Positions 5,518-30,165 of a DNA stretch of 32,431 nucleotides are shown one piece after another. The notes under the pieces are model-generated. The model was not told the DNA's origin and made no database searches. It saw nothing but the letters and a program-made list of their open reading frames with translations. The position numbers and the translations under genes were made by a program. The stretch covers positions 1 through 32,431 of the forward strand of contig CAZGJX010000044.1 of NCBI GenBank assembly GCA_964525635.1, read 5' to 3'. This stretch comes from an uncultured archaeon (GTDB taxonomy: Archaea > Asgardarchaeota > Lokiarchaeia > Sigyniarchaeales > SOKP01). Position 1 is the first letter of the stretch. Each line of letters starts with the position of its first letter.

Positions 5518-6693
5518 CTATTTGTATAAATAAATAATATGTTCAATCTTGTCTAATTTATCAAATATCCATTCTTTAAATTCCTGAAAGTTATCAATTG
5601 ATGGTGGTTCGTTATCAGGACTATGTTGAAAACTTTCTTGGTTAATAATTTCATGATTATTATTCGCCCCTATCTTTAGATAATCAATATTGCAAATAAT
5701 ATTCATAATATCTTTATTTGGAATTCTTAAACTTCTTAAAAGTTCTTCAAAATCAGTGAGATCACTATCTTTAAGTCGATAATTGGTGTTTCTCATCTGA
5801 ACCCAATCCTGTAAAAAATCGGAAGAAATTCCATCTTTCCAATGATTTGTTCTTAAGTAATTATATAATGATAAAGGATTATATAATTGGTCAAGCTCTA
5901 AATTACTTGGATTGACATGTTGACTTCGATAATTATGAAGTGTCTGAACAAATTCATTTGCTATTTGGAGATTCTTAGAGATGATTGATTCGTACTCATC
6001 TGAGAAATCTAAGAAATCTTTATTTGTTTTCGAGAACCTGTTTGTACCATCGTCTTTGAGTAATTTACGTGGAATCTCAATTTGATAGTACGATGATGTG
6101 AATTCTATTATCTTATTCCAATATTTTTTATTATAACTACTTAGAAATTTTGGTATATTCTTTGACTCATAATTATCATTTAACTCCATGTATATTTGAG
6201 TGGCAGTATTCTTAATTTGTTGGAGCTTATCTTTTAAAATAATAGAATTTTTAGATGAGGATATCAATAAATTTTCAAATTCAAGCTCTTTTTCATTGAA
6301 TTCTATATTAATGAATTTTTGCATTTTCTTATTATAAAAGATAAATTCCTGCCCGTTGGCTAGCTGGGAGACATTTTCATTGACATTGAGGATACATTTT
6401 ATATTTGAAAGTTCTAAAAGCTCTTTTAACTTATCTTTGTTGAGGTTATAAATCAAAAAGAGATTAGGTGTCTGAGAATAATTTGCTCCTGAATCACTTG
6501 TCAACATATCTTTTAGATTAAAAAGAGCCGTTGATTCCAAGTCTATTAAATTGTAGCCAATTGTGAAATTATCAAATGAACTTAGGTGCTTTAAATCCAC
6601 ATGGGGAAAGATAACTAAGTTTTTTTGTTGAAAAAACACCAAATTAAGAAATTCAGGAGTAATAAAATCTAGATCTGAGTCCACTCTAATCAC
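5518..6693 (-). CDS. Hypothetical protein (391 aa)
   Basis: Long ORF, GTG start, upstream TATA motif at 6759-6773. No recognised domain. Confidence 0.75.
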   Translation of the reverse strand: MIRVDSDLDFITPEFLNLVFFQQKNLVIFPHVDLKHLSSFDNFTIGYNLIDLESTALFNLKDMLTSDSGANYSQTPNLFLIYNLNKDKLKELLELSNIKCILNVNENVSQLANGQEFIFYNKKMQKFINIEFNEKELEFENLLISSSKNSIILKDKLQQIKNTATQIYMELNDNYESKNIPKFLSSYNKKYWNKIIEFTSSYYQIEIPRKLLKDDGTNRFSKTNKDFLDFSDEYESIISKNLQIANEFVQTLHNYRSQHVNPSNLELDQLYNPLSLYNYLRTNHWKDGISSDFLQDWVQMRNTNYRLKDSDLTDFEELLRSLRIPNKDIMNIICNIDYLKIGANNNHEIINQESFQHSPDNEPPSIDNFQEFKEWIFDKLDKIEHIIYLYK

Positions 6694-6827
6694 CTAATCT
6701 ATTTTAATCATTTAAAAATCGAATCCTATTTAGCAATAAATAGTATTAGAGATGGTCTTATATAAAGAAAAAATCTTGATGTAGATAGAAAATAGAGAAT
6801 TTAATTAAAACAAAATAAAAAAGAAAA

Positions 6828-7484
6828 TTAAGAAAAATTAAATATATTAAATAGAACTTGCCCGAGTAGGTCTCGAAAGGTTTCTATAACATTTATTCCT
6901 TGAATCGCTACTGTAGGATACACAATTAGAGTACTATCGGAATATTTTTCTTCCATAGGGAGATGTAGTTGCTGTTTAAATTCCTCAATGCTGATCTTTC
7001 TGTGTAAATCCTGCTTATTAAGTTGGATTACGTAGGGAACACCTCTCGATTTGGAAAAACTTAACAATTCCCTGAAACTGCGTTTGTTTTGCTCCATGAT
7101 CTTAGGATGGGAATCTGCAACAAAAATAATTCCATCTGCTCCATTAAGCACATATTCCCTTGTCGAAAGAAATCGTTCCTGACCAGTACAAGTAACCACA
7201 TGAACTATAATAGTAAAGTCTCTTTGATTTATAGTGGCTTCAAAGGATAAGAACAGGGAATCTTGCCATAGAGTTCTTCCATCATTTGTCTCAATTGAAT
7301 ATCCTTCAGTTACTCGCTCAGTGGAAAATTTCTCTTTTAACCTAAAAAAATTAGTTGTTTTTCCTGATTCTCCTGGTCCCCAATAAACAATTTTTAATTG
7401 AATTAAATTACCAAGGAAAAGACTATGTCTTGTATTTTCCATAGTATTAGTATCCATTTCTGATTCTGATATATTTTTAAGCAC
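6828..7484 (-). CDS. MglA-like small GTPase (Ras/Arf superfamily)
   Basis: KIVYWGPGESGKTTN (G1, cf. MglA KIVYYGPGLxGKTTN), TCTGQERF (G3 lacking Asp, as in MglA), NKQD (G4). GAGGTGA SD before the GTG start. Confidence 0.85.
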   Translation of the reverse strand: MLKNISESEMDTNTMENTRHSLFLGNLIQLKIVYWGPGESGKTTNFFRLKEKFSTERVTEGYSIETNDGRTLWQDSLFLSFEATINQRDFTIIVHVVTCTGQERFLSTREYVLNGADGIIFVADSHPKIMEQNKRSFRELLSFSKSRGVPYVIQLNKQDLHRKISIEEFKQQLHLPMEEKYSDSTLIVYPTVAIQGINVIETFRDLLGQVLFNIFNFS

Positions 7485-7505
7485 TTTATATCACCTCTGA
7501 TGAGT

Positions 7506-8054
7506 CTATGTTAACATACTCAGTTTATCTTTGAATATCTCTTTCTTGAGCTCTTTTATATGTTCTTTTAACTCTTTCTCTGTCATCTTAAGGGTATTTT
7601 TTATGGTTCCTGATTGCTCGATCTCTTTTTTAATTATAGGAGCAAATTTTTGCATTTGAAGGATCATAACTCCAATATTGACATCATTATCGCACAATAG
7701 AATTATAAGAATTTCTCTCTTTTCTTCATGATTAATTTTAATATTAGTTATAGATTTTACAAATAATTGCATATTGTTGTAGATAATAGTTGCTCTGTCT
7801 AAATAATCAGCTTCGAAAAAATCCTGCCCTTGTCTTGCCACACCATACATCGCAGCACCAATTGAACTGAGATCCCAGTAATTAAGTTTTCTGTCGAATC
7901 GAGAATCTACTGCGATAATTTTGGCATCCTGATCAACTGCAATAATCCCGTAGATATATCCTTTCCTCGTGAGTTTTCCATAATTATCTCGAATCTCATC
8001 AAGAATAGTACTTATTTTATTTTTATATAATACTTTAGGTATTTGTATTACCAT
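7506..8054 (-). CDS. Roadblock/LC7 (MglB-like) protein
   Basis: GIIAVDQDAKIIA..LSSIGAAMYGVA..LIILLCDNDVNIGVM pattern; directly upstream of the MglA-like GTPase. Confidence 0.75.
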   Translation of the reverse strand: MVIQIPKVLYKNKISTILDEIRDNYGKLTRKGYIYGIIAVDQDAKIIAVDSRFDRKLNYWDLSSIGAAMYGVARQGQDFFEADYLDRATIIYNNMQLFVKSITNIKINHEEKREILIILLCDNDVNIGVMILQMQKFAPIIKKEIEQSGTIKNTLKMTEKELKEHIKELKKEIFKDKLSMLT

Positions 8055-8161
8055 GACTTTATCTCCAAATAAAATTATTTTAAAGTGAAATATTGTCGGG
8101 AGTATTTAAAGAAAAAAAAGAAAATGCACATAAAAAGATAGATATATATTCAAAGATATTA

Positions 8162-9088
8162 CTATATAATTTTTATTTTGGATCTTTTGGTGAAATGAAC
8201 TTCTTTCTCATTATTTCTATCATTGTTTTTTATCATTACGTTGGAAATTTTTATTAATATATCATTTTCAATTGATTTAAGAACCTCTATAGCCTTTAGA
8301 TCCCAAACTAAGACAATTATATTTCCAGTATCATCTATAAGTTGGAACTTTAGTAAAAAAGACTTCTCTCCATTTTTCTTATTAAATTCTTTAAAATCAT
8401 CTATTTTTACATATCCACTCACAGAATCAATAAATCCTTCTTTATTGAATAAATCTTTAATATGTGTACTATTCACATGGGAAAGGGAATATCCATTTCC
8501 ATTACCTAATTCAATTTTTTGCAATTGTTTCTTTATTTTATCATCAATATCACTTGGTGCTAAAATTAGTGTTCCTATTTTCCCCATATGGATTTCAAGT
8601 CCCCCATTCAACCCTTTTTTTGAATATCCATTAATAACTCTTACAATTTCACCTTTTTGAAAGAATTCAGTATCTATAATTTTAACATGTTCACCCCATA
8701 CTACAATTTTAATTGATCCTGAAGTATCAGCTAGTATAAATGATCCAACAAGTCCAGGAGTATTATCTTTTCTTATAAAAGATTTTATTTGAAAAATATT
8801 GGTAATCTTACCAAGAATCACTATGTTGCTCATCCCCTCTTGAAGGTCACTTAGAGGCATAGTAAACTCATTATAATCAATCTCTTTTTCAATTTCAGAG
8901 TAGAGATCAGGATCAATATCAGGAGATTGAATTTTAAGACCCTTTTCTTTTGCAATAAGAAATAATGCTCCTTGTTCTGTTATAAATCCATGAAATTCTG
9001 ACTTCTTTCTCTTAATTTCATTATTTAATTCTTCCTCTGAGAAACCCTTGTTGATTAAACACTGATAAACTTCTTCAATATCACTCAT
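8162..9088 (-). CDS. rpa: Replication protein A-like ssDNA-binding protein (two OB folds)
   Basis: N-terminal GFITEQGALFLIAKEKG; OB motifs FIRKDNTPGLVGSFILADTSGSIKIVVW and LIDDTGNIIVLVW. Probable start ATG 9088 overlaps the upstream stop. Confidence 0.85.
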   Translation of the reverse strand: MSDIEEVYQCLINKGFSEEELNNEIKRKKSEFHGFITEQGALFLIAKEKGLKIQSPDIDPDLYSEIEKEIDYNEFTMPLSDLQEGMSNIVILGKITNIFQIKSFIRKDNTPGLVGSFILADTSGSIKIVVWGEHVKIIDTEFFQKGEIVRVINGYSKKGLNGGLEIHMGKIGTLILAPSDIDDKIKKQLQKIELGNGNGYSLSHVNSTHIKDLFNKEGFIDSVSGYVKIDDFKEFNKKNGEKSFLLKFQLIDDTGNIIVLVWDLKAIEVLKSIENDILIKISNVMIKNNDRNNEKEVHFTKRSKIKII

Positions 9089-9689
9089 TTTTAGATAAAA
9101 CGCCTTTTTCAATTAAAATATTTTTTGTGCGGTAAAAAGCATAAGCAGAGCAATTTGTTATCGCCCGAATATTTGTATTCATCAATTTTCTTGAATTAAA
9201 GCTATCCTTAAGATCTGTTATAAAGACCAGTATAGCTAATTGAGTCGAAATTTGAGGCCATAAATGAGTTGTATTAAAAAATTTATGAAGTATCTTTAGG
9301 TTTTTTCTTGCTCTCTTATAATCAAAGACAGGAGCTAATCTATGAAGCTTATGAAGATAAATTTTAACTTTTGTGTATATATTATTTTTTTTTAGATCCC
9401 ATTTGATTTTACACCGTTTTAAAAACATCTGAAACGATTTTAAATCTCTTAGAAATTTTTCAATAATATTTTTAGTAATATTATAATGGGCAACCGTATT
9501 AGTAGAGATCAGCTCATATTGCCTTTCAGATAAGCAAGGTACGATTTCAGTCTCGTAATTCACATATGTAATTGAATACTTTCGAAGTGTATAATCTAAA
9601 ATGCTCTGTTTGATTTTTTTATAGTTTATTGAGCATTCAATCATCTGAGATTCCTTATCTTTAATGGCCAATGTAAATACATTCGTCAT
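9081..9689 (-). CDS. Hypothetical basic protein; C-terminus weakly resembles a TFB/cyclin-fold repeat
   Basis: PQISTQLAILVFI...LMNTNIRAITNCSAYAF pattern; coupled to rpa; promoter motif at 9746-9761. Confidence 0.55.
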   Translation of the reverse strand: MTNVFTLAIKDKESQMIECSINYKKIKQSILDYTLRKYSITYVNYETEIVPCLSERQYELISTNTVAHYNITKNIIEKFLRDLKSFQMFLKRCKIKWDLKKNNIYTKVKIYLHKLHRLAPVFDYKRARKNLKILHKFFNTTHLWPQISTQLAILVFITDLKDSFNSRKLMNTNIRAITNCSAYAFYRTKNILIEKGVLSKNE

Positions 9690-9764
9690 ACTCTTTTTCT
9701 CTCTTTTATTAAGATTGTATATTTAGAAAAGAAAAAGTGTGGTTATATTTAAAGAAAAAAATCT

Positions 9765-9883
9765 GGGTAGGTACAAATGTTAGTGATAAAAATGCATAAA
9801 TTGATTTATTTTAGAATATTTCTCCTAAAATTATAATTTAATAAAAGAATATATTCTTCCATCACTGAATTTTGTAGGCACCC
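9765..9883 (+). mobile_element. MITE copy A (119 bp, 23-bp imperfect TIRs)
   Basis: Near-identical to 12547-12665 and to the reverse complement of 15507-15626. Ends GGGTAGGTACAAATGTTAGTGAT...ATCACTGAATTTTGTAGGCACCC. Confidence 0.9.
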
Positions 9884-9889
9884 TTTTTT

Positions 9890-10527
9890 GGGTAAGTACA
9901 AAATTCAGTGATGGTAAATTAAAATTAATTTTAGGTCTTAAGTTTCCATTAAAGAAACTTAGAAAATTCAAATAATTGTTATTTTAAATATTTTGTATCA
10001 ACTTTAACGTCATAATCAGGATGTATACAAAGTCCTTTAAACTCTATTGCTTTAGGTTCAAATAAAAACCTTACAGGAACATTACAGTCTAATCCTTTTT
10101 GTATTTCCATAGCAGTAGAAAGTCCAGCATAACCTTTTTTGTTATATACAAGAAGTAAATCAGCATACTCAATTAACCTTTTAAAAATCATGTGATTCTT
10201 AGCTTTTTCAATTAGCTCAACACTTTTATTATATACATCATCACTTGGTTCAAAAACTTTTTTATATCTATCATTTATCAACTTCTTAGATAATGCTGTC
10301 ATCTTTTGTTTAAATCTCATTGAACCACTAATTATTATTGTTTCAATTTTATTATCACAACTCAACTGGCTCACCTTGTCTTTGATTTTCAGATTTTTAT
10401 AATATAATTTATTTAACCTAAAATATATGAAGAGTCTTCTTATTTTTTAATATTATATTCATCACAATTTAAATTATCATAAAATCTTGTTAATTTTTAG
10501 TTTTATCACTAAATTTTGTACAGAACC
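9890..10527. mobile_element. Non-autonomous gene-carrying element 1 (same TIR family)
   Basis: TIRs at 9890-9912 and 10505-10527 (19/23 match). The composite 9765-10527 is flanked by AAAAATCT (9757-9764 and 10528-10535). Confidence 0.8.
9979..10374 (-). CDS. Nucleoside 2-deoxyribosyltransferase-like (Rossmann) small protein, cargo gene
   Basis: IIISGSMRF...IEYADLLLVYNKKGYAGLSTAMEI motif. Confidence 0.6.
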   Translation of the reverse strand: MSQLSCDNKIETIIISGSMRFKQKMTALSKKLINDRYKKVFEPSDDVYNKSVELIEKAKNHMIFKRLIEYADLLLVYNKKGYAGLSTAMEIQKGLDCNVPVRFLFEPKAIEFKGLCIHPDYDVKVDTKYLK

Positions 10528-10535
10528 AAAAATCT

Positions 10536-11276
10536 GGGTAGATGCAGAACCTATTGATGAATTATTTTTTATATATAAATTATATGATTAAATCAGCTTT
10601 ATTGATATGATTAAAATTTTATTATCATAAATGCTATGAAGATAAAGAAGCATAAATTTAAAAATTCAAAAAAAACAACAAGTTAAATGAAAAAAGAAGA
10701 AAAAACTCGTGATCGTCCATATATACCTGATTATGGTATTGAAGAATCAGATAATGGATTATTAAGTTGGAATTTTGTACAAAATGAGATGAAGGATGCA
10801 AAAAATTATTGGTTAAGTACTACAAGATTAGATGGTCGTCCCCATGCAATTCCTATATGGGGATCATGGATTAATGATAATTTTTATTTTGGGGGAGGTT
10901 CAGGAACACAAAATCGTAGAAATTTAGCTGAAAATCCCCATATTGTTGTTCACTCAGAAAGTGGGATTAAGGTTGTTATAATTGAAGGGAAGGCCTCAAT
11001 TGAGAAAAATGAGGATTTAATTAAGGAGATCAAGAAGGATTATATGAGAAAATACAATTTAGATCATCCTCCTCCATTTTATAGGGTAAGCAAAACCAAA
11101 GTTCTTTGTTGGAATATGGATGATTATGCTGGAACCCCAACACGATGGAAATTTATAGAACTAAAAGAATGAAAAGATATGGAAAAGTTTTGATATGGAT
11201 AATTGGGATCCCAAACAATAATAATAAATTTATTAGCAATTATCTATTTTTTTATCACTGACCTTTGGAACTACCC
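10536..11276. mobile_element. Non-autonomous gene-carrying element 2 (degenerate TIRs)
   Basis: TIRs at 10536-10558 and 11254-11276 (15/23 match); AAAAATCT on both sides (10528-10535, 11277-11284). Confidence 0.75.
10687..11172 (+). CDS. Pyridoxamine 5'-phosphate oxidase-like split-barrel flavin/F420-binding protein, cargo gene
   Basis: NYWLSTTRLDGRPHAIPIWG...RNLAENPHIVVH...VVIIEGKA motif. Confidence 0.85.
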   Translation: MKKEEKTRDRPYIPDYGIEESDNGLLSWNFVQNEMKDAKNYWLSTTRLDGRPHAIPIWGSWINDNFYFGGGSGTQNRRNLAENPHIVVHSESGIKVVIIEGKASIEKNEDLIKEIKKDYMRKYNLDHPPPFYRVSKTKVLCWNMDDYAGTPTRWKFIELKE

Positions 11277-11384
11277 AAAAATCTCTGATTAATTATTCAA
11301 ATATAATAATTCACCTACAAAATTTAATAAAATTAAGATAAATATTTGGAGTCAAATATTATATAATTTTATCAGAAACTTTAT

Positions 11385-12482: not shown

Positions 12483-12546
12483 TTGAACTATATTTGATGT
12501 TAAACAATATAAAGAAAAAATAAGTGTAATTTAACTCTTGGATTTT

Positions 12547-12665
12547 GGGTAGGTACAAATGTTAGTGATAAAAATGCATAAATTGATTTATTTTAGAATA
12601 TTTCTCCTAAAATTATAATTTAATAAAAGAATATATTTTTCCATCACTGAATTTTGTACGCACCC
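12547..12665 (+). mobile_element. MITE copy B (119 bp) with 8-bp TSD TGGATTTT
   Basis: TSD at 12539-12546 and 12666-12673; TIRs match 18/23. Confidence 0.92.
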
Positions 12666-14266: not shown

Positions 14267-14467
14267 TTACTCTTTTTTATGAAAAGCATCTAAAAAGGCC
14301 ATTTTTTCTTCAATAGCTAAAATATCCTCATCATCAAATTCGTCGCAATCCTGCTTTTCAAATTCTAATCTACATTTAAAGCAATTAAAGGACTCATTAT
14401 ATTCATATATTTCGAACCCGCCACAACGAGGGCAGTGATACTTTTCTTTTGGCATATTAAGTGACAT
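14267..14467 (-). CDS. Small Zn-ribbon protein
   Basis: CPRCGG...CFKC with an acidic C-terminal helix. Confidence 0.7.
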   Translation of the reverse strand: MSLNMPKEKYHCPRCGGFEIYEYNESFNCFKCRLEFEKQDCDEFDDEDILAIEEKMAFLDAFHKKE

Positions 14468-14604: not shown

Positions 14605-15198
14605 ATGGGAAATGATGATATCTGGTTTGTTCCAAAGAAAAAGCAGTCCAGCGGAAAATCAACCTTACTCATACTTTTTGCAATTAGTATAATAATCATA
14701 ATCCTTATCCCTTTTTTCAGTGATAATTTCCAACAAGTAACGGGAGATATCTTAGATACAGTCTTTAATGTACTTAAACAACTTAGTCTTTTTCTTGGAA
14801 TTATTTTAATAATAGTTGGATTTGTAAAGGCAATGAGTGAGGATGGAAGGGCGATGGGTGTAGTATTATTAATTATAGGCTTCATCTTGATATTATTATG
14901 GTTAGATCCAATCCATTTTATAAATGAAATAATGACGAAATTCGGAGGGTATGAAGATAAATATAGAAGAGAGGAGACTGATACTTTTGGTACTATAAGA
15001 ACTTTAGTTTTGGCAATTGCTCTGATAATGTTTGCAGTAGGATTATTTATTCTAAAAAATCACAAAAAAATAGGAATAACCCTTTTAATTATTTCAATAC
15101 TCCTTATGCTCATGGGATGGTTAGATCCATTTGGAATTCTAAATTTTATAGAATCTTTTTTTGATGATTCCTCTGGTTTTCCTTATGGATACACTTAA
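14605..15198 (+). CDS. Multi-pass membrane protein with two repeated 2-TM units ending WLDP
   Basis: About 5 hydrophobic segments and an internal repeat. The track start 14557 abuts the TATA motif, so ATG 14605 is preferred. Confidence 0.7.
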   Translation: MGNDDIWFVPKKKQSSGKSTLLILFAISIIIIILIPFFSDNFQQVTGDILDTVFNVLKQLSLFLGIILIIVGFVKAMSEDGRAMGVVLLIIGFILILLWLDPIHFINEIMTKFGGYEDKYRREETDTFGTIRTLVLAIALIMFAVGLFILKNHKKIGITLLIISILLMLMGWLDPFGILNFIESFFDDSSGFPYGYT

Positions 15199-15241: not shown

Positions 15242-15463
15242 TTAGTACATACCGAAATATCTTAGTCCAGTATCAAATCCACATAAAATTACAAGAAAAA
15301 TAGATGGAAGTAAGACAAAAGCCATTTTAGATTTATATTTATTAGAAAGTACCATTAATCCTAGCATACCAATAATAATCCCAAAGACACCTATAACGGA
15401 GCCTATTGCAATTAAAAAGTCAAAACCTTCTTCAAATGTCTCATAATAATCGTTTAGAACCAT
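15242..15463 (-). CDS. Small 2-TM membrane protein (pilin/CedA1-like architecture)
   Basis: 73 aa, two hydrophobic helices with a basic loop, own promoter motif at 15488-15503. Confidence 0.65.
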   Translation of the reverse strand: MVLNDYYETFEEGFDFLIAIGSVIGVFGIIIGMLGLMVLSNKYKSKMAFVLLPSIFLVILCGFDTGLRYFGMY

Positions 15464-15506: not shown

Positions 15507-15626
15507 GGGTGCGTACAAAATTCAGTGATGGGAAGAATATATTCTTTTATTAAATTATAATTTTAGGAGAAATATTCTAAAATAAATCAATTTATGCATT
15601 TTTATCACTAACATTTGTACCTACCC
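15507..15626 (-). mobile_element. MITE copy C (120 bp, inverted) with 8-bp TSD AAAAATAG
   Basis: TSD at 15499-15506 and 15627-15634; reverse complement of copies A and B. Confidence 0.92.
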
Positions 15627-15739
15627 AAAAATAGAAGAAATAATTAAAGAAAAGACAGGTTTTTATTTCAACAGTATAATACTCCCATCCAATATATTTC
15701 CCTAGACAATTTATCTCTATAATGAAATGAAAATTATGG

Positions 15740-15802: not shown

Positions 15803-16132
15803 ATGAAAAAAACAAAAGAACTTGGACTCTGTCCTAATTGCAATTGTTCAATTTTTATACATAAAACTTCAAATTATAAACGATATGCGAAATGTGAGAT
15901 ATGCGGGAATTCTTATCCCCTCCCAAAGCGGGGCAAAATTCACAACTCCGCTCTCATATGTCCTTTAAGGAATTATCCCATTTTAATTATTGAAAATAAT
16001 GGTAAAAAAGCATATTTTTGGGCAGATAGTCCTTGCTTTGATTGCGTGAACTATGACAATTGCAAACCAGTTCAAGAATTAATTAATGAATTCATGGAGA
16101 TGGAAGTGTATGAGTTTAAAAAACCAGATTAA
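15803..16132 (+). CDS. Cys-rich Zn-ribbon protein resembling the C-terminal Zn fingers of topoisomerase IA
   Basis: CPNC..CEICGNSYPLPKRGKI..CP..CFDC. Confidence 0.65.
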   Translation: MKKTKELGLCPNCNCSIFIHKTSNYKRYAKCEICGNSYPLPKRGKIHNSALICPLRNYPILIIENNGKKAYFWADSPCFDCVNYDNCKPVQELINEFMEMEVYEFKKPD

Positions 16133-19730: not shown

Positions 19731-19736
19731 AAAAAC

Positions 19737-20090
19737 TCAATCCTCAAGCAGTAGATCTAATATTTCATTCTTAACAGCATCTATCTTGCTACTCTTATCA
19801 TTTTCTTCTGAATTTATGGCATTATACACATCTTGATGATCAGATTCATTGAACATTTGCTGTACCATAAATAAAGTCGCAAGCTCGTTTACTTGGTTAC
19901 TATTTTGAGAAGCGCCACCTTTTCTAAAGATAAAACTCCTTTGTGCATTACCATCCTTACTTGACTTTCTATATCTTGAATACAAGAAAAACAAGATAAT
20001 AATACCTACTATGACCAAACAATACATCGGGCTCTTATAATAAAGCATTATAAAAGCTCCAAATAAAATAATATAAAAAAACCCTTTCAT
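19737..20090 (-). CDS. Small membrane protein
   Basis: Two N-terminal hydrophobic helices; operonic spacing with its neighbours. Confidence 0.7.
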   Translation of the reverse strand: MKGFFYIILFGAFIMLYYKSPMYCLVIVGIIILFFLYSRYRKSSKDGNAQRSFIFRKGGASQNSNQVNELATLFMVQQMFNESDHQDVYNAINSEENDKSSKIDAVKNEILDLLLED

Positions 20091-20097
20091 CTTTATA

Positions 20098-20973
20098 TCA
20101 CCACTGTCCTAATTCGATTTTAATTTTTTTTCTTTTTCCTGATTTTGTCAATATTTCTATAAAATTATCCAGAGCGATATTTTCTCCTAACTGCTCTTCT
20201 GAGGATTTGTCACTAGTATCATTTAGAAAATCTGAAAAACTTACCAAAGAAATTTGATTATCATTATTTTTTTTATTTTTTGTTGGCTTTAGAGTTGGAA
20301 TGGAGTTCATATAATTATGTCTTGAAGATTTATTATACCCATTATTACCAGCTACATAATTAATCATAAATTTTACACCAATAGCTGAATATTTCAATAT
20401 AATATAGCCAAAACCGATAAAAATGAAATAAAGAAAGCTAAATTTTGCTGGAATAAAAATATCAAATGTTAAAATGTAAACAATTAGCCCCAAGAGAATA
20501 ACCACACCTATTTGACTCAATGATTTTAATGGATTGTTTGTAAAACCCACTTTTATACTACTTATATCAGCAGCTGATGGACCTGCTGCTATAAGAATAG
20601 ATATTACAATAATTCCTGCCAATAATCTATAATACCAAATAAAAGATGCATTAAGTGCTATATCAAAACAAAACCATGCAATATAGCTAGATATAAAAAG
20701 GGGAGCAAGACCTACCAAAAATGCCTGCAAAAAGCTTCCTACTCTACTTCTAATATGACCTCTCATTTCCCTATAACTCACCTTTATCTCTGATGGAACA
20801 ATTCCCATTAATAGACTCATAGTATAATGGCATAATTCATGGATAACGATTCCTATGAATGCAATAATATCCAAAAATGTACCTAAGATTCTCGAAGAAA
20901 TTGCATTTCGAAGCATATTTAGAAAGAATCCGACAATTAATATAATTAGAAATAACCAAATACTATCAAACAT
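20098..20973 (-). CDS. M50-like intramembrane zinc metalloprotease
   Basis: HELCH (HExxH) within a TM segment, GLAPL, GPSAAD. GGTGA SD before ATG 20973. Confidence 0.75.
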   Translation of the reverse strand: MFDSIWLFLIILIVGFFLNMLRNAISSRILGTFLDIIAFIGIVIHELCHYTMSLLMGIVPSEIKVSYREMRGHIRSRVGSFLQAFLVGLAPLFISSYIAWFCFDIALNASFIWYYRLLAGIIVISILIAAGPSAADISSIKVGFTNNPLKSLSQIGVVILLGLIVYILTFDIFIPAKFSFLYFIFIGFGYIILKYSAIGVKFMINYVAGNNGYNKSSRHNYMNSIPTLKPTKNKKNNDNQISLVSFSDFLNDTSDKSSEEQLGENIALDNFIEILTKSGKRKKIKIELGQW

Positions 20974-21400
20974 GAATTTATCACCATATCGATGTATATA
21001 AACAAAAAATGGGTAAAAAACCAAAAAATAAAATCATACAATTAAATTTGAAAGACTTAACCATATTTATCATCCTAATATGAGGACTTAGAATTATAAA
21101 GTACAAAGATTTTTAAACCCGAAATCATCTGGTCAAATATGTATAAAATATCGATATTATTTCATAAATTTTAGATGCTGTCTTTTTTGGTGTGATCAAT
21201 GAAAATCTGACTATAAAATTATTGTATAAAATACTTTTAGAAATATATTATAAATTCTAAAATAATTTCAGAAAATAATGTAAAATTCTTATGAATTTGA
21301 AAAATGTTTTGTAATGATAATATCTAAAAGCAAAACTCCTTCCTTAATATTCTTAAGAAAATAAAAAATTGGTTCATCAAAAAAAAATTGTGATTAAAAA

Positions 21401-22815: not shown

Positions 22816-25800
22816 ATGAGAACACACATTAGATGTTATGGAAAAGTAGTACTTTTAGGCTTCATTGCCTTATTTTCGATATGTTTCGTACTTCCCAGTA
22901 ATAATCATTTATCTGCTGATGAAATTGCTGATACTGAGAATACGATTGCAAACTCAAGCCAACAGACCAACTTGCAGATTATTGAAGAAATTCTAGATGA
23001 AAAAGTAGCAGATTTTACGAATAATGGGTATTTTTCTCAACTCTATACGCCCTCCTTACAGGGAACTTATTACGGCTTGTATATTCTTGATATCTTAGAC
23101 CGTCTTGATTTAATTAATCAGACAGAAATCACAAATTATATCATGGCTCAATTCAATGATGACTACAATATTTTTATGGATGACTATAGTTTTCGATATT
23201 TGGATACGGATTTTGATTTGAAATATTACCCTCTTACCTCTATTTTACAGACAAATTGTTATGTGATATTGTCCCTTCAATTACTAAATCGGTTGAATCT
23301 CATCGACACACAATATATAATTCAATTTATTTGGAGTTGTTTTGATTCTGAGCAAGGTGGATTCATTGGACAACCATATGATAATAATTTAGAAGAAGAA
23401 TTTAAAATAGCAACTTTAGATAATACTTTCTTTGCCGTAATAACGCTTGACCTTTTAATGAATGATTGGATGCAATATACTACCGAAAGAGACTTAATTA
23501 TTAATTATGTCAATGGACTTCAATCAAATATACCATCAGATCTATTATTTGGAGGATTTTTGAATGATAATAATATTGAATTTGAATCACTGGATTCTTT
23601 TGACCTTAATATTCTATCCTGTTACTATGCAATTAAAACTCTGGAAATTTTTAAGATGGTTGATACAATTCGAATAGATGATTTTAATCAATATTTATCT
23701 AATCTATATGATGATGATCTTAATTATTTTCAATATTCCAGGGTGATGCCTTATAATAATTACTCCAATATAGTAGCCACAAGTATAGGATTAGATCTTT
23801 CATTAAAGACAGAGTGCCCAGCTATTAATCATTCTGAATTATTAGACTTTATAATAAATAATAGAAATGAGTATGATATTTGGGATGCTTCTACAAGTCA
23901 TAATATATATGAATTAATAGATACATTTCGAATACTTAAATCACTGGAAGAATCTGGAAATTTAGCCATATTAACTCAAACAGATAAGGAAAATATTGTA
24001 AATGCGTTAAACCTATTTAAAAGTTACTGTAGCTTTTCGCTTATTCCTAAAGAATATACCAGTCAAGAATTAATGTACAGTATTATTCAATCATTTTCAC
24101 TTTATAATAGAATCTCTGATTTAGAACTTCATGAACTTTATAAACAAATTGAAAAAACCTATTTTGATTCTTCTCAAATCCAAAGTCGTGGTTTTTATAG
24201 CTATATGAATGTAGATGGATTATATAGTATCTTAAGAACATTACCGATTGAGTATTATAATGTTGGAAATCATTATTATACAGAAGAGATTGACTATGCA
24301 TATTCACATAAAAATACATATATGGCATTAAAATCGTTGGAGAGTCTATTTAAATTAGATGATTTTGAATTCATCCATGATTTAGAAGAAATACTAAATA
24401 GTATTATAAATTCTCAATTTTTAGATGAATCCTCAAATAAGTTTGGGGCATTTTTACCCTACGAGAACTTCAGTGTAATTTTAAAAGAGTATCAAGAGAA
24501 ATTTATCTTCTTTCATTATTCCTATTATGCAATTAAATGCATGGACTTTATAACTCATTATTTAGATCTGGGAATTGTCTCTGAATTAAATTTCGATAAG
24601 AGTGCTTTAATTAGTTATCTAGAGAAAAATATTGTAGAAACACCTACTACTCTATATTACAATTCAAATAATACAAATAATATAGAGGCAATTCTACAAG
24701 ATACATATTTCCTTGTTGATTTGTTGATGATATTGGATGAATACTTATTGGATACAGAGAAGATTAAAAATTATATTTTGGAAAATATCGATTATACAAA
24801 TATTAAAAACATATACTATTGCTATAAATTAGATGAAATACTCGATTTGGGAATAGAATTTGATATAGAGCTTACTCATCTCTTGATCAAAAATATTTAT
24901 GATAACACATTAAAAGAATTCTATACTTCAACAGAACATAAGGAAATAGATGGAGAAATCTTATATTGGATATGTTATATGTCAAGAAATGATGATTTAC
25001 GAGTAAGTGTTCAATATCAAGATCCTGTAATGCTTCTTGGTGAAAATAATATTAATGTTTCTATTTGTAATATTATCCTTGAGGATTTCGGACCTTATGC
25101 TGTTGTAAAATATGAAAGCCCCAAAATAGGAACTGTTGTATTAATAAGACAAGAACAAAATCTTTATAATGGTACGATCCCTATTCCTCTCGAATCAGAT
25201 TGCTACCCAATAATTTACGGAAATATCTCCTTATATGAAGGATTGACAAAGATTGCAGGTAAATCATTGAATTTTTCGACTACCTATGATTTAACTTATT
25301 TTTATGACATTATAGAATATGAAGACTCTATATATTTCGAAATAAACTCATCCTTAATAACAGCACAAGGAATGAAAGCATTTGAAAGCATGGAAGCATA
25401 TGTCAATATATATCAAGATGAGAACTTAATTGACCAAATAACATTCCAGATGACCGATTATATATCTTATAATCATTTTAATCTTACTTACAATTACCTT
25501 TCCTTTGAAAATTATACCTTTGACCTATTTTTAAATGATGGGATAAGATTAGAGCCTTATCAAGTCACCACTTTTGAGAGAGTAAGTAATTTCGATGTAG
25601 AAATAAATTATTCTCCTGTAGTACAGCTTAACAGTGTTAATATTATTACTATAAATCTTGGAAATTGTAGTGATGATGTTATTGTTAGGTTTGAGAGCTT
25701 ACAATTAAAGACAGTAATATTTGAGAAAAATGAATATAATAACTATCAAGGAGATGTCCTTATACCTTTACATCCGGATAACTATCCTAATGTTAATGGC

Positions 25801-26292
25801 AATATCAGTGTGTATTATCAAGCAGAGAAAGTCTTTAGCAGAGCTATAACATTCGGAACTACTTATGATATTGATTATACTTATGATGTGATTAGGAATG
25901 GAAATACAATGGATTTTAAAGTTAATTCGTCATTAATTACTGGGTATGGAAGGGAATCATATTCAGAAGAACAGGTATTTATGAAAGTATATAAGGACGG
26001 AAATTTGATAACTAATAATCAAGCTTTCACAATGAGTTTAGGCGATACATGGAACTTATTTAGTTCTTCATATGAAATGCTTTATGCCGATAACTATACA
26101 TTTGAATTATACTTAAATGATGGAATTAGTTCTGAATCTATTAAGATATTAACTTATGAGGGTATCTATAATAATGCTCCACCTAATGAGCCAGTTAATT
26201 TCATGGCGCCCTTAGGGATATTTATGATAGGAATGCCAGGTTCAGTTATCATGTATACTTCATATCGAAAGAATAAAAAAATAACTAAATGA
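22816..26292 (+). CDS. Large secreted, membrane-anchored protein with prenyltransferase/squalene-cyclase-like repeats
   Basis: Signal/TM N-terminus; repeated GGF..../TYY.L.L helices (e.g. FIWSCFDSEQGGF, TFFAVITLDLL); duplicated C-terminal beta domains; TM+RKNKK. Confidence 0.7.
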   Translation: MRTHIRCYGKVVLLGFIALFSICFVLPSNNHLSADEIADTENTIANSSQQTNLQIIEEILDEKVADFTNNGYFSQLYTPSLQGTYYGLYILDILDRLDLINQTEITNYIMAQFNDDYNIFMDDYSFRYLDTDFDLKYYPLTSILQTNCYVILSLQLLNRLNLIDTQYIIQFIWSCFDSEQGGFIGQPYDNNLEEEFKIATLDNTFFAVITLDLLMNDWMQYTTERDLIINYVNGLQSNIPSDLLFGGFLNDNNIEFESLDSFDLNILSCYYAIKTLEIFKMVDTIRIDDFNQYLSNLYDDDLNYFQYSRVMPYNNYSNIVATSIGLDLSLKTECPAINHSELLDFIINNRNEYDIWDASTSHNIYELIDTFRILKSLEESGNLAILTQTDKENIVNALNLFKSYCSFSLIPKEYTSQELMYSIIQSFSLYNRISDLELHELYKQIEKTYFDSSQIQSRGFYSYMNVDGLYSILRTLPIEYYNVGNHYYTEEIDYAYSHKNTYMALKSLESLFKLDDFEFIHDLEEILNSIINSQFLDESSNKFGAFLPYENFSVILKEYQEKFIFFHYSYYAIKCMDFITHYLDLGIVSELNFDKSALISYLEKNIVETPTTLYYNSNNTNNIEAILQDTYFLVDLLMILDEYLLDTEKIKNYILENIDYTNIKNIYYCYKLDEILDLGIEFDIELTHLLIKNIYDNTLKEFYTSTEHKEIDGEILYWICYMSRNDDLRVSVQYQDPVMLLGENNINVSICNIILEDFGPYAVVKYESPKIGTVVLIRQEQNLYNGTIPIPLESDCYPIIYGNISLYEGLTKIAGKSLNFSTTYDLTYFYDIIEYEDSIYFEINSSLITAQGMKAFESMEAYVNIYQDENLIDQITFQMTDYISYNHFNLTYNYLSFENYTFDLFLNDGIRLEPYQVTTFERVSNFDVEINYSPVVQLNSVNIITINLGNCSDDVIVRFESLQLKTVIFEKNEYNNYQGDVLIPLHPDNYPNVNGNISVYYQAEKVFSRAITFGTTYDIDYTYDVIRNGNTMDFKVNSSLITGYGRESYSEEQVFMKVYKDGNLITNNQAFTMSLGDTWNLFSSSYEMLYADNYTFELYLNDGISSESIKILTYEGIYNNAPPNEPVNFMAPLGIFMIGMPGSVIMYTSYRKNKKITK

Positions 26293-26344: not shown

Positions 26345-27007
26345 ATGCAACCTGATTCCTATTCGAAATTATTAGATGATAGCAAAACAACAAGGACACT
26401 AAAAAGTACCGCTAGTTCAAAAAAGAAGGATATAGAATTATTTAATGTAATTCTCGATGCCTTGAACGCCTATAAGGGAAATTACCATAAAAAATTTAAT
26501 TTCGGAAAATTAATAGCTCAATTAGGTATATCGATTAATGAAAGTGAAGATATAATTAAATTAATTCTTAAGTTTCAGAACTTATTTCATAGTACTTTCA
26601 ATGATTATGAGCTCATCCCCAAGAAAATTAATAATTCATTATATTTTTTAACAGAGAAATTTACCAGTAAAATCCAAGATAAAAAAGAAGAGAAAGATAA
26701 CAGAAATAAGACAATTGAATTAAAACTAAAGCAAGATGAATTGAATATGTTAAATGATATTATTTATATATTCAAGCATGTAAATAGAGGAAAAGGTTTT
26801 GATTTATCTTTAAATAATTCTGATCTTATGCACAATATAAAATCTCTGAAATCCTCTTATCCTGCTATATTCTATGCTAATGGAAATAATTTAATATATC
26901 CCTCAAAACTAGGATTAGAACTTGGTGAGACTATTAACTCTTATTTCAAATGTAATCGTCTTTTTGAGAAACTTATTATAGATAATTATAAAATAACAGT
27001 GATATGA
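26345..27007 (+). CDS. Hypothetical protein, possibly winged-helix
   Basis: 220-aa ORF coupled to hef; FNFGKLIAQLGIS is HTH-like. Confidence 0.6.
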   Translation: MQPDSYSKLLDDSKTTRTLKSTASSKKKDIELFNVILDALNAYKGNYHKKFNFGKLIAQLGISINESEDIIKLILKFQNLFHSTFNDYELIPKKINNSLYFLTEKFTSKIQDKKEEKDNRNKTIELKLKQDELNMLNDIIYIFKHVNRGKGFDLSLNNSDLMHNIKSLKSSYPAIFYANGNNLIYPSKLGLELGETINSYFKCNRLFEKLIIDNYKITVI

Positions 27008-27012
27008 TATAA

Positions 27013-29112
27013 TTGAGTGATTCTGAACAATATCAAGATATAGTAAACATAGTTGAAATTGAAAATAAATATCTCAATAAAGAAAAATTAGAGACAAGAA
27101 AATATCAGTTAAGAATTGCAAAGGATTGTGTAGGAAAGAATTCTCTTATTGTATTACCCACGGGTTTAGGAAAGACAATAATTGCGGTACTCGTCGTAGC
27201 ATTTAACTTAGAAAAATATCCTATTGGAAGTAAAATCATTATCATGGCCCCAACAAGACCTCTAATAAACCAGCATTATGAAACATTTCGAAGCTTTTTA
27301 TCATTACCAGAAAAAAAATATTGTATCTTGACAGGGAAAAACTTACCTAAAGAAAGACCTCAAGAATTTCAGACTCATCAAATCCTATTTTTCACACCTC
27401 ATACTTTAAGAAATGATTTAGCAATGAAAAAATACTCCTTAGAAAATACTTGCCTTATAATTTTTGACGAAGCTCATCATGCAACAGGTGATTATCCATA
27501 TGCCTTGATCGCTGATGAATATATTGATCAAAATCCTGACGGTATTATTTTAGGAATGACAGCATCACCAGGAGCAAGTAAAGAAAAAATTATTCAATTA
27601 TGTCATAATTTGCATATACCTCCTACTAACATCCATCTTAGAGCAAGAAAGGATACTGATGTAAAAGGTTATTTAAAACCACTTGACATTTATAAAATTG
27701 GAGTAAATCTTACTTCATTGATGGATGATACTTGTAAGGCAATAAAAATTCTATTAGAAGAACGATTGCAACATCTTGCTGAGTTAGATTTTATCAAAGT
27801 TAAAGCAAAAGCTCTGCATAAAAAAGTTATCAGAAAAGATCTTCTCAAATTAAATAATGAGCTTATATCTCTAGTTCATGGAGATGGTAATAAGACAGGC
27901 GTATATTCTTCTTTATCAATAAATGCTCAAGCATTAATTCTCTTTCATATGATAGAATTAATTGAACAACAAGGTTTGGATGTATTACTTATTTATTTAG
28001 AAAAATTACAAAAAGATGCAAAAAAGAAAAATAGTTCTAAAGCTACAAGGGTATTGGCTTCAGATTATCGAATCCGTCAGATTCATTTAGAATTGATGAA
28101 AAATAAAGAGCTTAATTCCCCAGTATTAGTACATCCTAAATTAAAAATACTTCGCCAAATAATTATCGATGAGTTAAATAAGAATCATGATTCTCGTATT
28201 TTAGTTTTCGTGAAATTAAGGGCTTCTGTTAGAAATATTGTAGAAAATTTAAAGGAAAATAAGTTGATCAAACCAATTAGATTCGTGGGTCAAGCTACAA
28301 AGTCAAAAGAAGATAAAGGTTTGAACCAAAAACAGCAAATAGAACTCCTCGATCTGTTTAAGAAAGGGAAATACAATGTCTTGGTAAGTACTAATGTTGC
28401 GGAAGAGGGATTAGATATCGCTGAATGTGACTTAGTTATATTTTATGATGTTGTAGCGTCAGAAATTCGGTTAATTCAGAGAAAAGGAAGAACAGCTCGG
28501 CATAGAAAAGGAAAAGTTATCATTCTCTATTGTAGAAATACCAATGATGAGGTGTATTTAAATATTGCTTTAAATAAATTAAATAAAATGCAGAGAAATC
28601 TGCAAAAACCAAGCCTTCTGAAAGAAAATGAAAAAAAGATAAAAAATAAGACACAATCTAATTTGGGAGATTTTCTATCTAAAAAGGATAAAGCTAAGAA
28701 AGAAAAAGCTCATTTAGATATAAAGGTACACTGCAAATTAGATATGAAATTTGGACTACGTAAGAAGCTGAGTGAAAATAGATTGCCCTTTATTGTTGTT
28801 GACTCGCAAATAGATATTGAATTATTTGATAAAATAGCTATTCAAATATATGATCCAAGAGACTTTTCTGAAAATAGTATCATAGGAAAAAATCAGATTC
28901 TTCAGGAAAGCCATTCCTTAGGAGTCAATATCTTTGATTTTATTGATTTTTCTGAGAATTATGAAAGTGAAAAGCGCTTATTAAAAACCAAATTTAGGAA
29001 TTTAGGGAATACTTACAATCTACAAGTTATTAATATTGATACTCCTGAAGAATTATTCTTTATTATAAAGAACATCTATCAGCATAATATACAAGAGGAG
29101 AAAAAATTATGA
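27013..29112 (+). CDS. hef: Hef/FANCM/Mph1-like DEAH helicase with degenerate C-terminal domain
   Basis: LPTGLGKT, APTRPL, DEAHHA, MTASPG, RFVGQA, STNVAEEGLDI, QRKGRTAR. Confidence 0.88.
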   Translation: MSDSEQYQDIVNIVEIENKYLNKEKLETRKYQLRIAKDCVGKNSLIVLPTGLGKTIIAVLVVAFNLEKYPIGSKIIIMAPTRPLINQHYETFRSFLSLPEKKYCILTGKNLPKERPQEFQTHQILFFTPHTLRNDLAMKKYSLENTCLIIFDEAHHATGDYPYALIADEYIDQNPDGIILGMTASPGASKEKIIQLCHNLHIPPTNIHLRARKDTDVKGYLKPLDIYKIGVNLTSLMDDTCKAIKILLEERLQHLAELDFIKVKAKALHKKVIRKDLLKLNNELISLVHGDGNKTGVYSSLSINAQALILFHMIELIEQQGLDVLLIYLEKLQKDAKKKNSSKATRVLASDYRIRQIHLELMKNKELNSPVLVHPKLKILRQIIIDELNKNHDSRILVFVKLRASVRNIVENLKENKLIKPIRFVGQATKSKEDKGLNQKQQIELLDLFKKGKYNVLVSTNVAEEGLDIAECDLVIFYDVVASEIRLIQRKGRTARHRKGKVIILYCRNTNDEVYLNIALNKLNKMQRNLQKPSLLKENEKKIKNKTQSNLGDFLSKKDKAKKEKAHLDIKVHCKLDMKFGLRKKLSENRLPFIVVDSQIDIELFDKIAIQIYDPRDFSENSIIGKNQILQESHSLGVNIFDFIDFSENYESEKRLLKTKFRNLGNTYNLQVINIDTPEELFFIIKNIYQHNIQEEKKL

Positions 29113-29639
29113 GTGAAGAGGCCTGTTGGAAAAAAGATACTACTCCTTATCTGATTTTTAGATGCAGTAAATGCAGACAATATTTATATGTTAAACGATC
29201 ACAAAGGAATAAGAAGTGCCTAAGATGTGGAAAATCCCATAATATTAAAAATATTAATGAAGAAGAGATTGTCAATGGAATGAGTATTGCTGTTAAGCGT
29301 GTAAAAGAAAGACAAAATGAACTTGCAAAGAAAACATCAGGGGGCAAACCTGAGCTTCGGGGAGCAAGCGATTTTCATGTATCATCTGATACTAAAAACT
29401 TAGGATTTATAAAAAAACATAGGAAAAGTAATGAGATAAAAGAGAGATTTCAGGTATTACTGAAAGAACTTTCAAGCAAATATAAGATATTTCCAAAATA
29501 TATGATAGAATTACTGATTGAAGATTATCAAATAGAAAAATCAGACCTTAAATTTCTAATTATCTCTGCTCTAAAAAAGGAATTATTAAAAGAAGTAAAG
29601 AAGTATTATTATCAGGTATCAAAAGTGAAAAATAAATAA
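29109..29639 (+). CDS. DUF1922-like Zn-ribbon protein
   Basis: YLIFRCSKCRQYLY....KKCLRCGK; ATGA overlap with the hef stop. Confidence 0.65.
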   Translation: MSEEACWKKDTTPYLIFRCSKCRQYLYVKRSQRNKKCLRCGKSHNIKNINEEEIVNGMSIAVKRVKERQNELAKKTSGGKPELRGASDFHVSSDTKNLGFIKKHRKSNEIKERFQVLLKELSSKYKIFPKYMIELLIEDYQIEKSDLKFLIISALKKELLKEVKKYYYQVSKVKNK

Positions 29640-29644
29640 TTTTG

Positions 29645-29842
29645 TTATCCTGTCATTTCTTTTTTGAGGATCGTTAAATGAATATAATTTTTGGGAACAT
29701 ATTTTATTTTATACTTACGAGAGCTGAACTTATAAAAAGGAATAATAATATTTGATACTTTTATTTTATGTAATTCTGAATTTAATATTATGTTTTCTTT
29801 TGCTTTAAATATAGAATCCTTCCTATTTCCCTTAATACTCAT
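29645..29842 (-). CDS. Small basic hypothetical protein
   Basis: Short ORF supported only by the shared promoter motif at 29882-29895. Confidence 0.4.
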   Translation of the reverse strand: MSIKGNRKDSIFKAKENIILNSELHKIKVSNIIIPFYKFSSRKYKIKYVPKNYIHLTILKKEMTG

Positions 29843-29895
29843 GATTAGATAATTAATTTTATTATGTTCATAATTTAAAAGTATTTAAAGAAAAA

Positions 29896-30165
29896 TCATG
29901 ATTTTTTAACTTCTTCCAAATATAATTTCATAAAGTATCTTTGACTTTTGCAAAAATCAGCTCTTTGAACATCTGAAAGACTTGAATTTGTTAGAATTAG
30001 CCTTATTTTCTCTAATATTTCAAGATAATCCTTAGTTGATTTCTTAGGCTCTCGCTTTATAACCACGTCAATTTTATTTCTTGGAGTATCTCGATCTAAT
30101 TTTGGGATTTCTAAATTGAACTTGAGTTTATTAGATGTCTCATCATGTCGAGCTTTAGAATCCAT
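29896..30165 (-). CDS. Hypothetical protein (89 aa)
   Basis: ATG-start ORF with a weak promoter motif at ~30191-30205. Confidence 0.5.
   Translation of the reverse strand: MDSKARHDETSNKLKFNLEIPKLDRDTPRNKIDVVIKREPKKSTKDYLEILEKIRLILTNSSLSDVQRADFCKSQRYFMKLYLEEVKKS

Follow-up and report, generated by a model that had tools for sequence, protein, structure and literature searches.

An accessory island in one Promethearchaeota family that may couple divergent recombination paralogs to envelope and polarity genes

Competence regulons of bacteria depend on ComX, SigH, or TfoX and include SsbB, RecA, DprA, ComEA, ComEC, and ComFA. Haloarchaea have alternative TFB paralogs with regulons of their own, and such a paralog is proposed to recognize its own kind of element ahead of the TATA box. 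In Sulfolobales, the UV/TFB3 program of Ups pili and the proteins CedA, CedA1, CedA2, CedB, and CedD ties a TFB-family factor to membrane and surface genes and to homologous recombination (PMC11823120, PMC6101591, PMC9905601), and in Asgard archaea two clades of RadA have been described (Matsuo et al. 2025, PMC12722695). Here, we analyze contig C44 of an uncultured Loki-type Asgard archaeon (genome of 4.45 Mb in 245 contigs, about 28% G+C), the whole 32,431 bp of which we call the window. The window carries recombination paralogs interleaved with membrane, surface, and polarity genes, a cluster that we call the island and that an earlier note on this DNA had taken for a Ced-like module of DNA uptake and recombination. 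The searched literature yielded no description of the island.

On balance, and with modest assurance, we read the island as an accessory, relocatable, and apparently co-regulated program of recombination plus envelope functions, encoded in about 40 kb in one Promethearchaeota (Loki-type Asgard) family. When about 29 kb around the ortholog of the Fen-like gene was fetched from ten genomes, genome G038 was found to have 19 families in an order identical to that of the window: o391, MglA-like, roadblock, RPA, o202, Fen, TM213, TM73, Zn109, surf341, RadA, RadB-like, TM117, HExxH protein, TFB-like, surf1158, o220, Hef, and DUF1922. Genomes G116, G065, G111, G121, G062, and G143, which span four genera, have most of the 19 families with local rearrangements; G095 and G100 retain parts of the island, and G032, of another family, gave a distant Fen match only. 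Synteny, which the earlier note had proposed as a check, is real: the neighborhood is kept, with gene order nearly unchanged, in at least four genera of the family.

The distribution of the island is patchy. Of the 131 family genomes that were sampled, 83 carry the Fen-like gene and 93 the TFB-like gene; the two co-occur in 69, a single one of them is present in 14 and 24, and both are missing from 24. The presence of the two genes is associated across genomes, they lie at most 25 kb apart in at least 40 genomes, and no TFB-like gene turned up in 19 genomes from other families. Within the genus to which the window belongs, genomes differ: both markers occur in one, the TFB-like gene alone in a second, and neither in a third (G046, 99% complete). 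The island is flanked by metabolic genes, and the flanks differ: G038 and G065 share one with AFOR, an Fe-S oxidoreductase, and DAO, and G116, of the same genus as G038, has another with DHQS II. Some genomes, such as G143, have several copies. From its patchy presence and differing flanks, the island is best read as accessory and relocatable. On the left, it is bordered by an 885-residue surface protein. On the right, four extended loci continue past o89 to a Hel308-like helicase, a 631-residue helix-hairpin-helix (HhH) protein, and membrane proteins of 247, 286, and 1,273 residues. That gene set directly follows o89 in the relatives and in this genome lies on contig C107, with a 410-residue family on C215. 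Genes for IS630-type transposases stand at both ends of C44 by Pfam, and because the continuation genes sit on C107 and C215, we conclude that the insertion sequence (IS) at the right end broke the assembly and that the full island measures about 40 kb, of which window positions 5518-30200 form the larger part.

The recombination genes of the island are divergent second copies, as the earlier note had supposed. Genes were assigned with Pfam, NCBIfam, and hydropathy, with profiles built from orthologs and compared to solved structures, and with Foldseek on predicted models, and by the first three all gene types named in that note were found where it had placed them. The set comprises RPA, Fen1/XPG, a RadA with two HhH domains, and a Hef without nuclease, to which C107 adds the Hel308-like helicase and the HhH protein; in the window it is interleaved with an MglA/MglB-like pair, the HExxH unit, small transmembrane (TM) proteins, two surface proteins, and a TFB homolog. 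The window's repair genes fall below equivalog cutoffs, RadA excepted. The Fen1-like protein scores 282 bits on TIGR03674 against a cutoff of 352, with the acidic active-site residues present when its translation is compared by eye to textbook FEN1 motifs, and canonical Fen1 is encoded on C89 (428 bits). The Hef-like protein reaches 554 bits on NF010337 (cutoff, 610) over model positions 5 to 545 of 781 and shows neither a nuclease domain nor an ERCC4 match in Pfam or NCBIfam, so that it is the helicase part rather than a Hef; a full Hef with nuclease is encoded on C38 (882 bits). The RPA-like protein scores 104 bits on replication factor A models, far under their cutoffs, and has a paralog at 34% identity on C9. 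RadA passes NF003301 narrowly, the first frame alone scoring 263 to 264 bits against a cutoff of 259 and the second frame 45 bits over the last 47 model positions. The island copy thus has the N-terminal HhH and RecA core of the curated RadA model, and canonical RadA proteins are encoded on C2 (454 bits) and C18 (432 bits). About 11 further TFB genes lie elsewhere in the genome, and identity between island genes and canonical copies is 34 to 42%.

Most units of the island are preceded by one promoter type, TTTTTTCTTT(A/T)(A/T)AT(A/T), in which a T run, one C, TTT, and a TATA box follow one another 30 to 75 nt ahead of the start codon in 13 of 15 transcription units. The T6-C-T3-TATA element occupies the usual place of the purine-rich B recognition element (BRE), and its spacing is compatible with leaderless or short-leader transcripts. 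From that spacing, the start of TM213 is probably to be corrected to 14605 and that of the HExxH protein to 20973. The unit of the HExxH protein has a variant at 21003, in which G replaces C, a form 4.5-fold less frequent across the genome. On C44, the strict pattern was counted 9 times, where 0.79 would be expected by length, and genome-wide the count is 109. The motif was not found upstream of the ATPase, the TFB-like gene, Zn66, two genes of an inserted cassette, or the left-flank genes. Thus, the shared promoter of the earlier note holds for 13 of the 15 units but not for the ATPase, the TFB-like gene, or Zn66. Moreover, the pattern was derived in the window yet is enriched in orthologous islands, with sites inside and outside the island numbering 13 and 0 in G038, 11 and 1 in G116, 14 and 2 in G065, and 5 and 5 in G062, where the outside sites are located at the island borders. 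Half of all exact 15-mer sites in G038, G116, and G006 lie on the island contig. Other high-scoring sites of the genome stand before the island genes of C107 and C215, before paralogs on C73 and C21, and before genes for surface or TM proteins.

The island also encodes a candidate reader of that promoter. A profile of the TFB-like protein matches TFIIB (E value, 4e-7) over TFIIB residues 29 to 196, from the ribbon to the first cyclin repeat, with the second repeat not detected, and the protein scores 15.8 bits on the curated TFB model versus 384. The island thus probably holds a remote TFB homolog of its own, as the earlier note had claimed, but not one of TFB3-like form, since the cyclin repeat and the length are unlike the short TFB3. 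We propose that the units would be switched on together, coupling a change of the cell envelope to dedicated DNA handling and recombination, with the TFB-like factor as the most likely, if unproven, reader of the promoter. The DNA to be recombined could be incoming foreign DNA, sister chromosomes, or damaged DNA. If so, a whole family would keep a second, co-regulated recombination set tied to envelope and polarity proteins, and the promoter element, the candidate factor, and about 25 genes are concrete candidates for testing. We note that on C21 (L088 2324-19925) a second TFB-like gene, 41 to 43% identical to that of the window, lies beside a RadB-like gene and about 7 kb from genes for a TM-less HerA-like ATPase (785 residues), a kinase-SF1 helicase fusion (1,133 residues), and a TPR protein. 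On G100:C53, a HerA-like protein, an HExxH protein, and a short TFB-like protein form a comparable grouping.

Polarity proteins are represented by a GTPase and its neighbor. A profile of nine orthologs of the GTPase matches solved MglA (E value, 1e-27; best non-MglA chain, 2e-9; Arf, about 1e-8). A PDB profile search with the roadblock protein gave nothing meaningful; its predicted model (pLDDT 65) has Myxococcus xanthus MglB (6izw_B; E value, 2e-5) as the top Foldseek match, followed by Asgard roadblock proteins, and its neighbors in the Atlas carry Robl_LC7. An MglA-type GTPase thus adjoins a partner of roadblock fold. Prediction of the complex lends the pair weak support, with a score of 0.47 (best control, 0.01), a mark that 58 of 80 solved complexes attain, as do 2 of 110 mismatched pairs; of those reaching it, 7 of the 80 solved complexes and both mismatches lie at or below 0.60. 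At least 76% of contacts recur between runs, and the pLDDT of the partner is at least 77. Because MglA-MglB complexes have already been solved and may be remembered by the predictor, the prediction amounts to likeness at most. The pair is invariably adjoined by o391, for which nothing was found in Pfam, the PDB profile search, the Atlas, or PHROGs.

The membrane proteins of the island are diverse. TM213 is, by alignment, an internally duplicated form of a polytopic island protein of about 130 residues and has 4 to 5 TM segments, and TM73 has a Gly-rich first TM helix that is invariant in eight orthologs. Profile searches of the PDB with either protein gave no meaningful match. Where the earlier note saw several small two-TM proteins, the description therefore fits TM73 but not TM213. 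The order of the HExxH, TM117, and RadB-like genes is identical in all relatives, and the polytopic HExxH protein, the M50-like protease of the earlier note, has HExxH and PSxxD motifs that are invariant in six orthologs and no family match in Pfam or PADLOC. The surface protein surf1158 matches Pfam Prenyltrans at 45 bits, and its orthologs are 38 to 44% identical. The other surface protein, surf341, is membrane anchored, and relatives keep its gene paired and overlapping with that of Zn109, just as they keep the overlap of o202 and RPA, the trio of o220, Hef, and DUF1922, and the position of o89 beside the Hel308-like helicase. This genome carries some of the membrane genes twice. On C73 (L090 2792-11159), we observed second copies of Zn109-surf341 (66 to 74% identity), the HExxH protein (55%), and Zn66 (65%), each with an island-type promoter. 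The coordinates of all features are collected in Table 1.

Table 1. Features of the window on contig C44, with the position of the single C of the island promoter where a unit has one
Feature	Position	Strand	Remarks
Surface protein, 885 aa	1575-4232		MG2-like domain, C-terminal anchor; no island promoter; no counterpart in related islands
o391	5518..6693	-	Fold without match; promoter C at 6767; orthologs of 39-49% identity in 8 relatives
MglA-like small GTPase	6828-7484	-	Begins 21 nt past the end of the roadblock gene
Roadblock/MglB-like protein	7506-8054	-	First gene of pair; promoter C at 8111
RPA-like ssDNA-binding paralog	8162-9112	-	OB folds; 32-nt overlap with o202
o202	9081..9689	-	Promoter-proximal gene of o202-RPA unit; no assigned family; promoter C at 9754
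MITE/TIR cassettes	9757..11296	.	131-aa gene and PNPOx gene (genes 9979-11172); repeat families D1-D4, I4
Fen1-like (XPG/Rad2) paralog	11385-12482	-	XPG_N and XPG_I; promoter C at 12514
MITE copy	12543..12642	.	Inverted partner of 15531-15630; 100-nt arms, 99% complementary
RadA-like protein	12868-14149	+	Second C-terminal HhH domain; 31-nt split; promoter C at 12823/12824
31-nt radA insert	13663-13693	+	Exactly absent from 4 orthologs; unique in genome
Zn66	14267-14467	-	Small Zn-ribbon protein; CxxC pairs; no island promoter; homologs in several islands
TM213	14605..15198	+	Polytopic membrane protein; promoter C at 14547
TM73	15242..15463	-	Two-TM hairpin protein; promoter C at 15497
MITE copy	15531..15630	.	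Inverted partner of 12543-12642
Zn109 (15803-16132) and surf341	15803..17111	+	Overlapping genes of one unit; promoter C at 15747
HerA/FtsK-superfamily ATPase	17183-18952	+	TM anchored, three N-terminal TM helices; lineage-specific insertion, not an island gene
RadB-like RecA-fold ATPase	19011-19730	-	Label below model cutoff
HExxH membrane protein (20098-21024), TM117 (one TM), and RadB-like ATPase	19011..21024	-	One unit; gaps of 6-7 nt
Divergent TFB-like factor, 420 aa	21401-22663	+	Zn ribbon and first cyclin repeat; long C-terminal extension
surf1158	22816..26292	+	Signal-anchored surface protein; alpha/alpha-toroid domain, C-terminal TM helix; promoter C at 22756
o220, Hef-like helicase, and DUF1922 Zn-ribbon protein (29109-29639)	26345..29639	+	One unit; promoter C at 26311
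Hef-like helicase part	27013-29112	+	Matches NF010337
o65 and o89	29645..30165	-	Two small genes, each with its own island promoter; promoter C at 29890 and 30199
IS630-type transposase	31272..32329	-	HTH and DDE_3 (Pfam); at right end of contig, interrupts island

The window has also been altered by insertions. The cassettes between o202 and Fen, with a miniature inverted-repeat transposable element (MITE) and terminal inverted repeats (TIR), are missing there in relatives and have no island promoter, and their genes are intruders rather than island genes. We note that the PNPOx gene (10687-11172) is 84% identical to L075:5982-6467, which lies beside radA in the island of G143, a genome of another genus, whereas island proteins of the window and G143 are only about 40 to 76% identical. 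These identities suggest a recently mobile TIR cassette that targets such islands. Three MITE copies (12543-12642, 15531-15630, and 9764-9884) of about 100 to 120 nt and 98 to 100% identity lie within 6 kb, and each directly adjoins an island promoter. The inverted pair brackets radA, Zn66, TM213, and TM73. A simple inversion between the copies was considered as the cause of the move of radA and rejected because the orientation of TM213 and TM73, which lie between them, is unchanged. Removal of the 31-nt insert gives a single RadA frame of 416 residues, and the RNA around it is predicted to fold into a stem with opposed bulges (-27 kcal/mol; z, -2.4). The insert may be a bulge-helix-bulge mRNA intron or, alternatively, a disabling insertion. 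In G033, a sister genome, the Fen-like gene has in-frame stops.

Several observations weigh against a co-regulated program. The promoter is not strictly private, as about 100 strict matches lie outside C44, and a strictly private promoter was rejected on the strength of these sites together with those of G046. In that genome, of the same genus as the window, the TFB-like gene was not found (best match, 20 bits), yet exact promoter 15-mers number 15 versus 3 in a reversed control, and the inspected sites lie directly upstream of three genes of the surf341 family, a gene of the 410-residue family, and a gene for a 378-residue TM protein. Thus, the promoter class extends beyond the island and can persist without the factor. 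That the factor acts on the promoter is something we infer, and the factor may not be the reader. Co-regulation of the units is likewise inferred, from their sequence alone. The label RadB is weak, with 41 bits on TIGR02237 against a cutoff of 172 and comparably weak matches to KaiC, ArlH, and NB-ARC, and a protein that sits in a unit of membrane proteins may have no role in recombination. As a side observation, it may be the ATPase of a membrane complex instead of a recombination mediator. The radA gene may be broken here by its insert, and the insert, the IS, MITE, cassette, and ATPase insertions, and the stops in G033 together suggest that the island has been remodeled and is perhaps eroding in this genus. 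Finally, no component with a demonstrated function in DNA translocation or surface DNA binding was found among the island genes.

Of the alternatives, an intracellular stress or repair regulon survives best. Such a regulon would serve fork rescue, double-strand-break repair, or equalization of genome copies, with the envelope genes co-regulated and no DNA crossing the membrane, and we regard it as possible, if on the unlikely side. Every clearly assigned enzyme acts on DNA inside the cell, and no translocase is conserved in the window's part of the island. Moreover, the promoter in G046 drives envelope paralogs without recombination genes, so that the two halves are separable. A repair regulon nonetheless leaves unexplained the interleaving of envelope, polarity, and recombination genes, which is kept across genera, and it leaves unexplained why a full housekeeping set is retained as well.

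That the island serves DNA exchange is a hypothesis. In its fullest form, which we hold to be rather unlikely, the island would be a switchable, mating- or competence-like program of Asgard archaea, in which the surface proteins and an MglA/MglB polarity switch prepare contact between cells or the entry of DNA and the dedicated recombinase, RPA, FEN/EXO-type nuclease, and FANCM-like and Hel308-like helicases recombine the incoming DNA. If this holds, a dedicated "sexual" recombination toolkit would have its prokaryotic counterpart in the closest relatives of eukaryotes.

Less of the evidence fits a domesticated or decaying integrated mobile element, the remnant of a plasmid or virus with its own recombination and replication helpers and surface proteins, which we consider improbable. 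Patchy presence (83 to 93 of 131 genomes), flanks that differ within one genus, several copies per genome as in G143, the load of IS and MITE, and the partial second set of several genes found on C73 and C21 would all be expected of such a remnant. The earlier note was right, however, that no integrase, relaxase, or capsid gene is evident, and Pfam, NCBIfam, and PHROGs likewise gave no replication initiator, polymerase, or terminase. With PHROGs and PADLOC, the window proteins gave P-loop-level or generic helicase matches only, with no viral hallmark and no defined defense system. Neither a tRNA near the borders nor an integrase at them was found in the islands of four relatives. Moreover, across G033, G038, G116, G062, and G065, the island Fen shows identities of 66, 69, 67, 57, and 59% and canonical Fen1 identities of 80, 76, 74, 73, and 71%. 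The two series run in roughly matching order, as would suit vertical descent with loss, and descent with loss and faster divergence accounts for this no worse than transfer does.

Insertion of the ATPase, on which the earlier note had built its Ced analogy, is particular to the island of this genome. The gene is absent from the island of nine relatives examined and from up to 69 kb around that of four, none of the listed genomes has it beside the Fen-like or TFB-like genes by contig, and five island-bearing genomes gave no ATPase match. Of 151 genomes belonging to the order, 120 carry homologs, frequently more than one (a copy on C66 of this genome is 62% identical), none of eight other ATPase loci has the island promoter, and orthologs in G095, G100, G011, and G032 lie among genes for a thermosome, Tsr3-like, YchF-like GTPase, and Ras-plus-roadblock proteins. 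We note that this housekeeping locus (G095:C1 at about 1.03 Mb; L059-L064), with the thermosome, Tsr3-like, ATPase, YchF-like, and Ras-type GTPase genes and roadblock proteins, is common to two families. In the window, the ATPase gene is on the same strand as surf341 and 72 nt after it, with a T11 run between them, and it sits in the slot that radA has in relatives; radA itself is displaced and inverted in the segment between the MITE copies. T-rich direct repeats flanking the gene were considered as insertion scars and rejected as low-complexity runs. In a separate observation, ATPase homologs at G061:C7 (L053/L054) and G125:C19 (L057/L058) lie a few kilobases from RPA-like genes and small TM proteins, and in G061 a RadA-like gene is also near; these loci are outside the main island, lack its promoter, and may represent an independent association.

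Likeness to Ced is also low at the level of the proteins. On the CedD model NF053655, the ATPase scores 58.6 to 59.5 bits against a cutoff of 600, a likeness of superfamily rank only; this is nonetheless its best NCBIfam match, but two other HerA-type genes of the genome, on C89 and C25, score higher (73 and 67 bits), and the model also matches in E. coli and Caulobacter. Foldseek with the predicted fold (pLDDT 65) gave HerA first, then DndH, VirB4, and Cag-beta, and did not separate VirB4 from VirD4. The protein looks active by its sequence, as its Walker A and hhhED motifs are retained across 24 homologs, and the idea of a catalytically dead ATPase was rejected. The "pilin-like" proteins of the earlier note resemble pilins in topology rather than in sequence, and a hairpin is not diagnostic by itself: profiles of TM213 and TM73 found no CedA1, TedC, or VirB2 chain among solved structures in the PDB, and the one TrbC/VirB2 match in Pfam was for TM213 alone, in one of eight orthologs and below the cutoff. 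The Ced analogy, which rests on the ATPase and on the pilin-like proteins, is not supported, and DNA uptake or transfer is accordingly no more than a hypothesis. A Ced-like importer, powered by the ATPase, with the small TM proteins as pilus or channel and the repair paralogs processing imported DNA under TFB3-like control, has in its favor the N-terminal TM helices and intact motifs, a fold within the HerA/VirB4/VirD4 group with CedD as best curated match, the placement after surf341, and the fact that CedD is essential to DNA import in Sulfolobus (PMC11823120), but an ATPase that comes without the island promoter, behind a T run, from a housekeeping context and is not conserved with the other components, next to TM proteins without sequence likeness to CedA1, TedC, or VirB2 and a TFB unlike TFB3, leaves that reading largely refuted as far as the ATPase is concerned and very improbable as a whole. 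Since the ATPase is not part of the system, models of DNA transfer must turn to the conserved membrane proteins.

How the recombination-plus-envelope program that we favor relates to known systems can be stated part by part. Like the Sulfolobales program, the island links a TFB-family factor to membrane and surface genes and to homologous recombination, and the window does hold a membrane-anchored HerA/FtsK-type ATPase. No CedA, CedA1, CedA2, or CedB homolog was detected in the window, however, and the ATPase is no CedD by the curated model and no conserved member of the island. Moreover, the Ced and Ups genes are scattered and draw on the housekeeping recombinase, whereas the island is clustered and has a private set of enzymes, and the island factor, with its cyclin repeat and long tail, differs from the short TFB3. 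As in bacterial competence, a special promoter and an alternative initiation factor would jointly switch on a recombinase, a second ssDNA-binding paralog, helicases, an HhH protein, and membrane proteins. The likeness is one of analogy only: no homologous uptake component, channel, or pseudopilus was found in the island, which belongs to another domain of life with another transcription machinery. As in Haloarchaea, many TFB paralogs occur per genome (about 11 here), but the island factor has diverged much further, its gene lies within the regulon that it would control, and it is linked to a T-tract element, which one relative (G046) keeps without the factor. The island pair resembles the MglA/MglB module of Myxococcus and Thermus in the profile match of its GTPase, in its roadblock partner, and in the two adjacent genes of one unit, and differs in being always followed by the 391-residue protein and embedded in a recombination island; any role in polarity or as a GTPase-activating protein is putative. 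Finally, as in the Asgard archaea with two RadA clades, there is more than one RadA per genome, here those of C2 and C18 plus the island copy, but the island copy is a third and more divergent form, with an extra C-terminal HhH and fixed neighbors.

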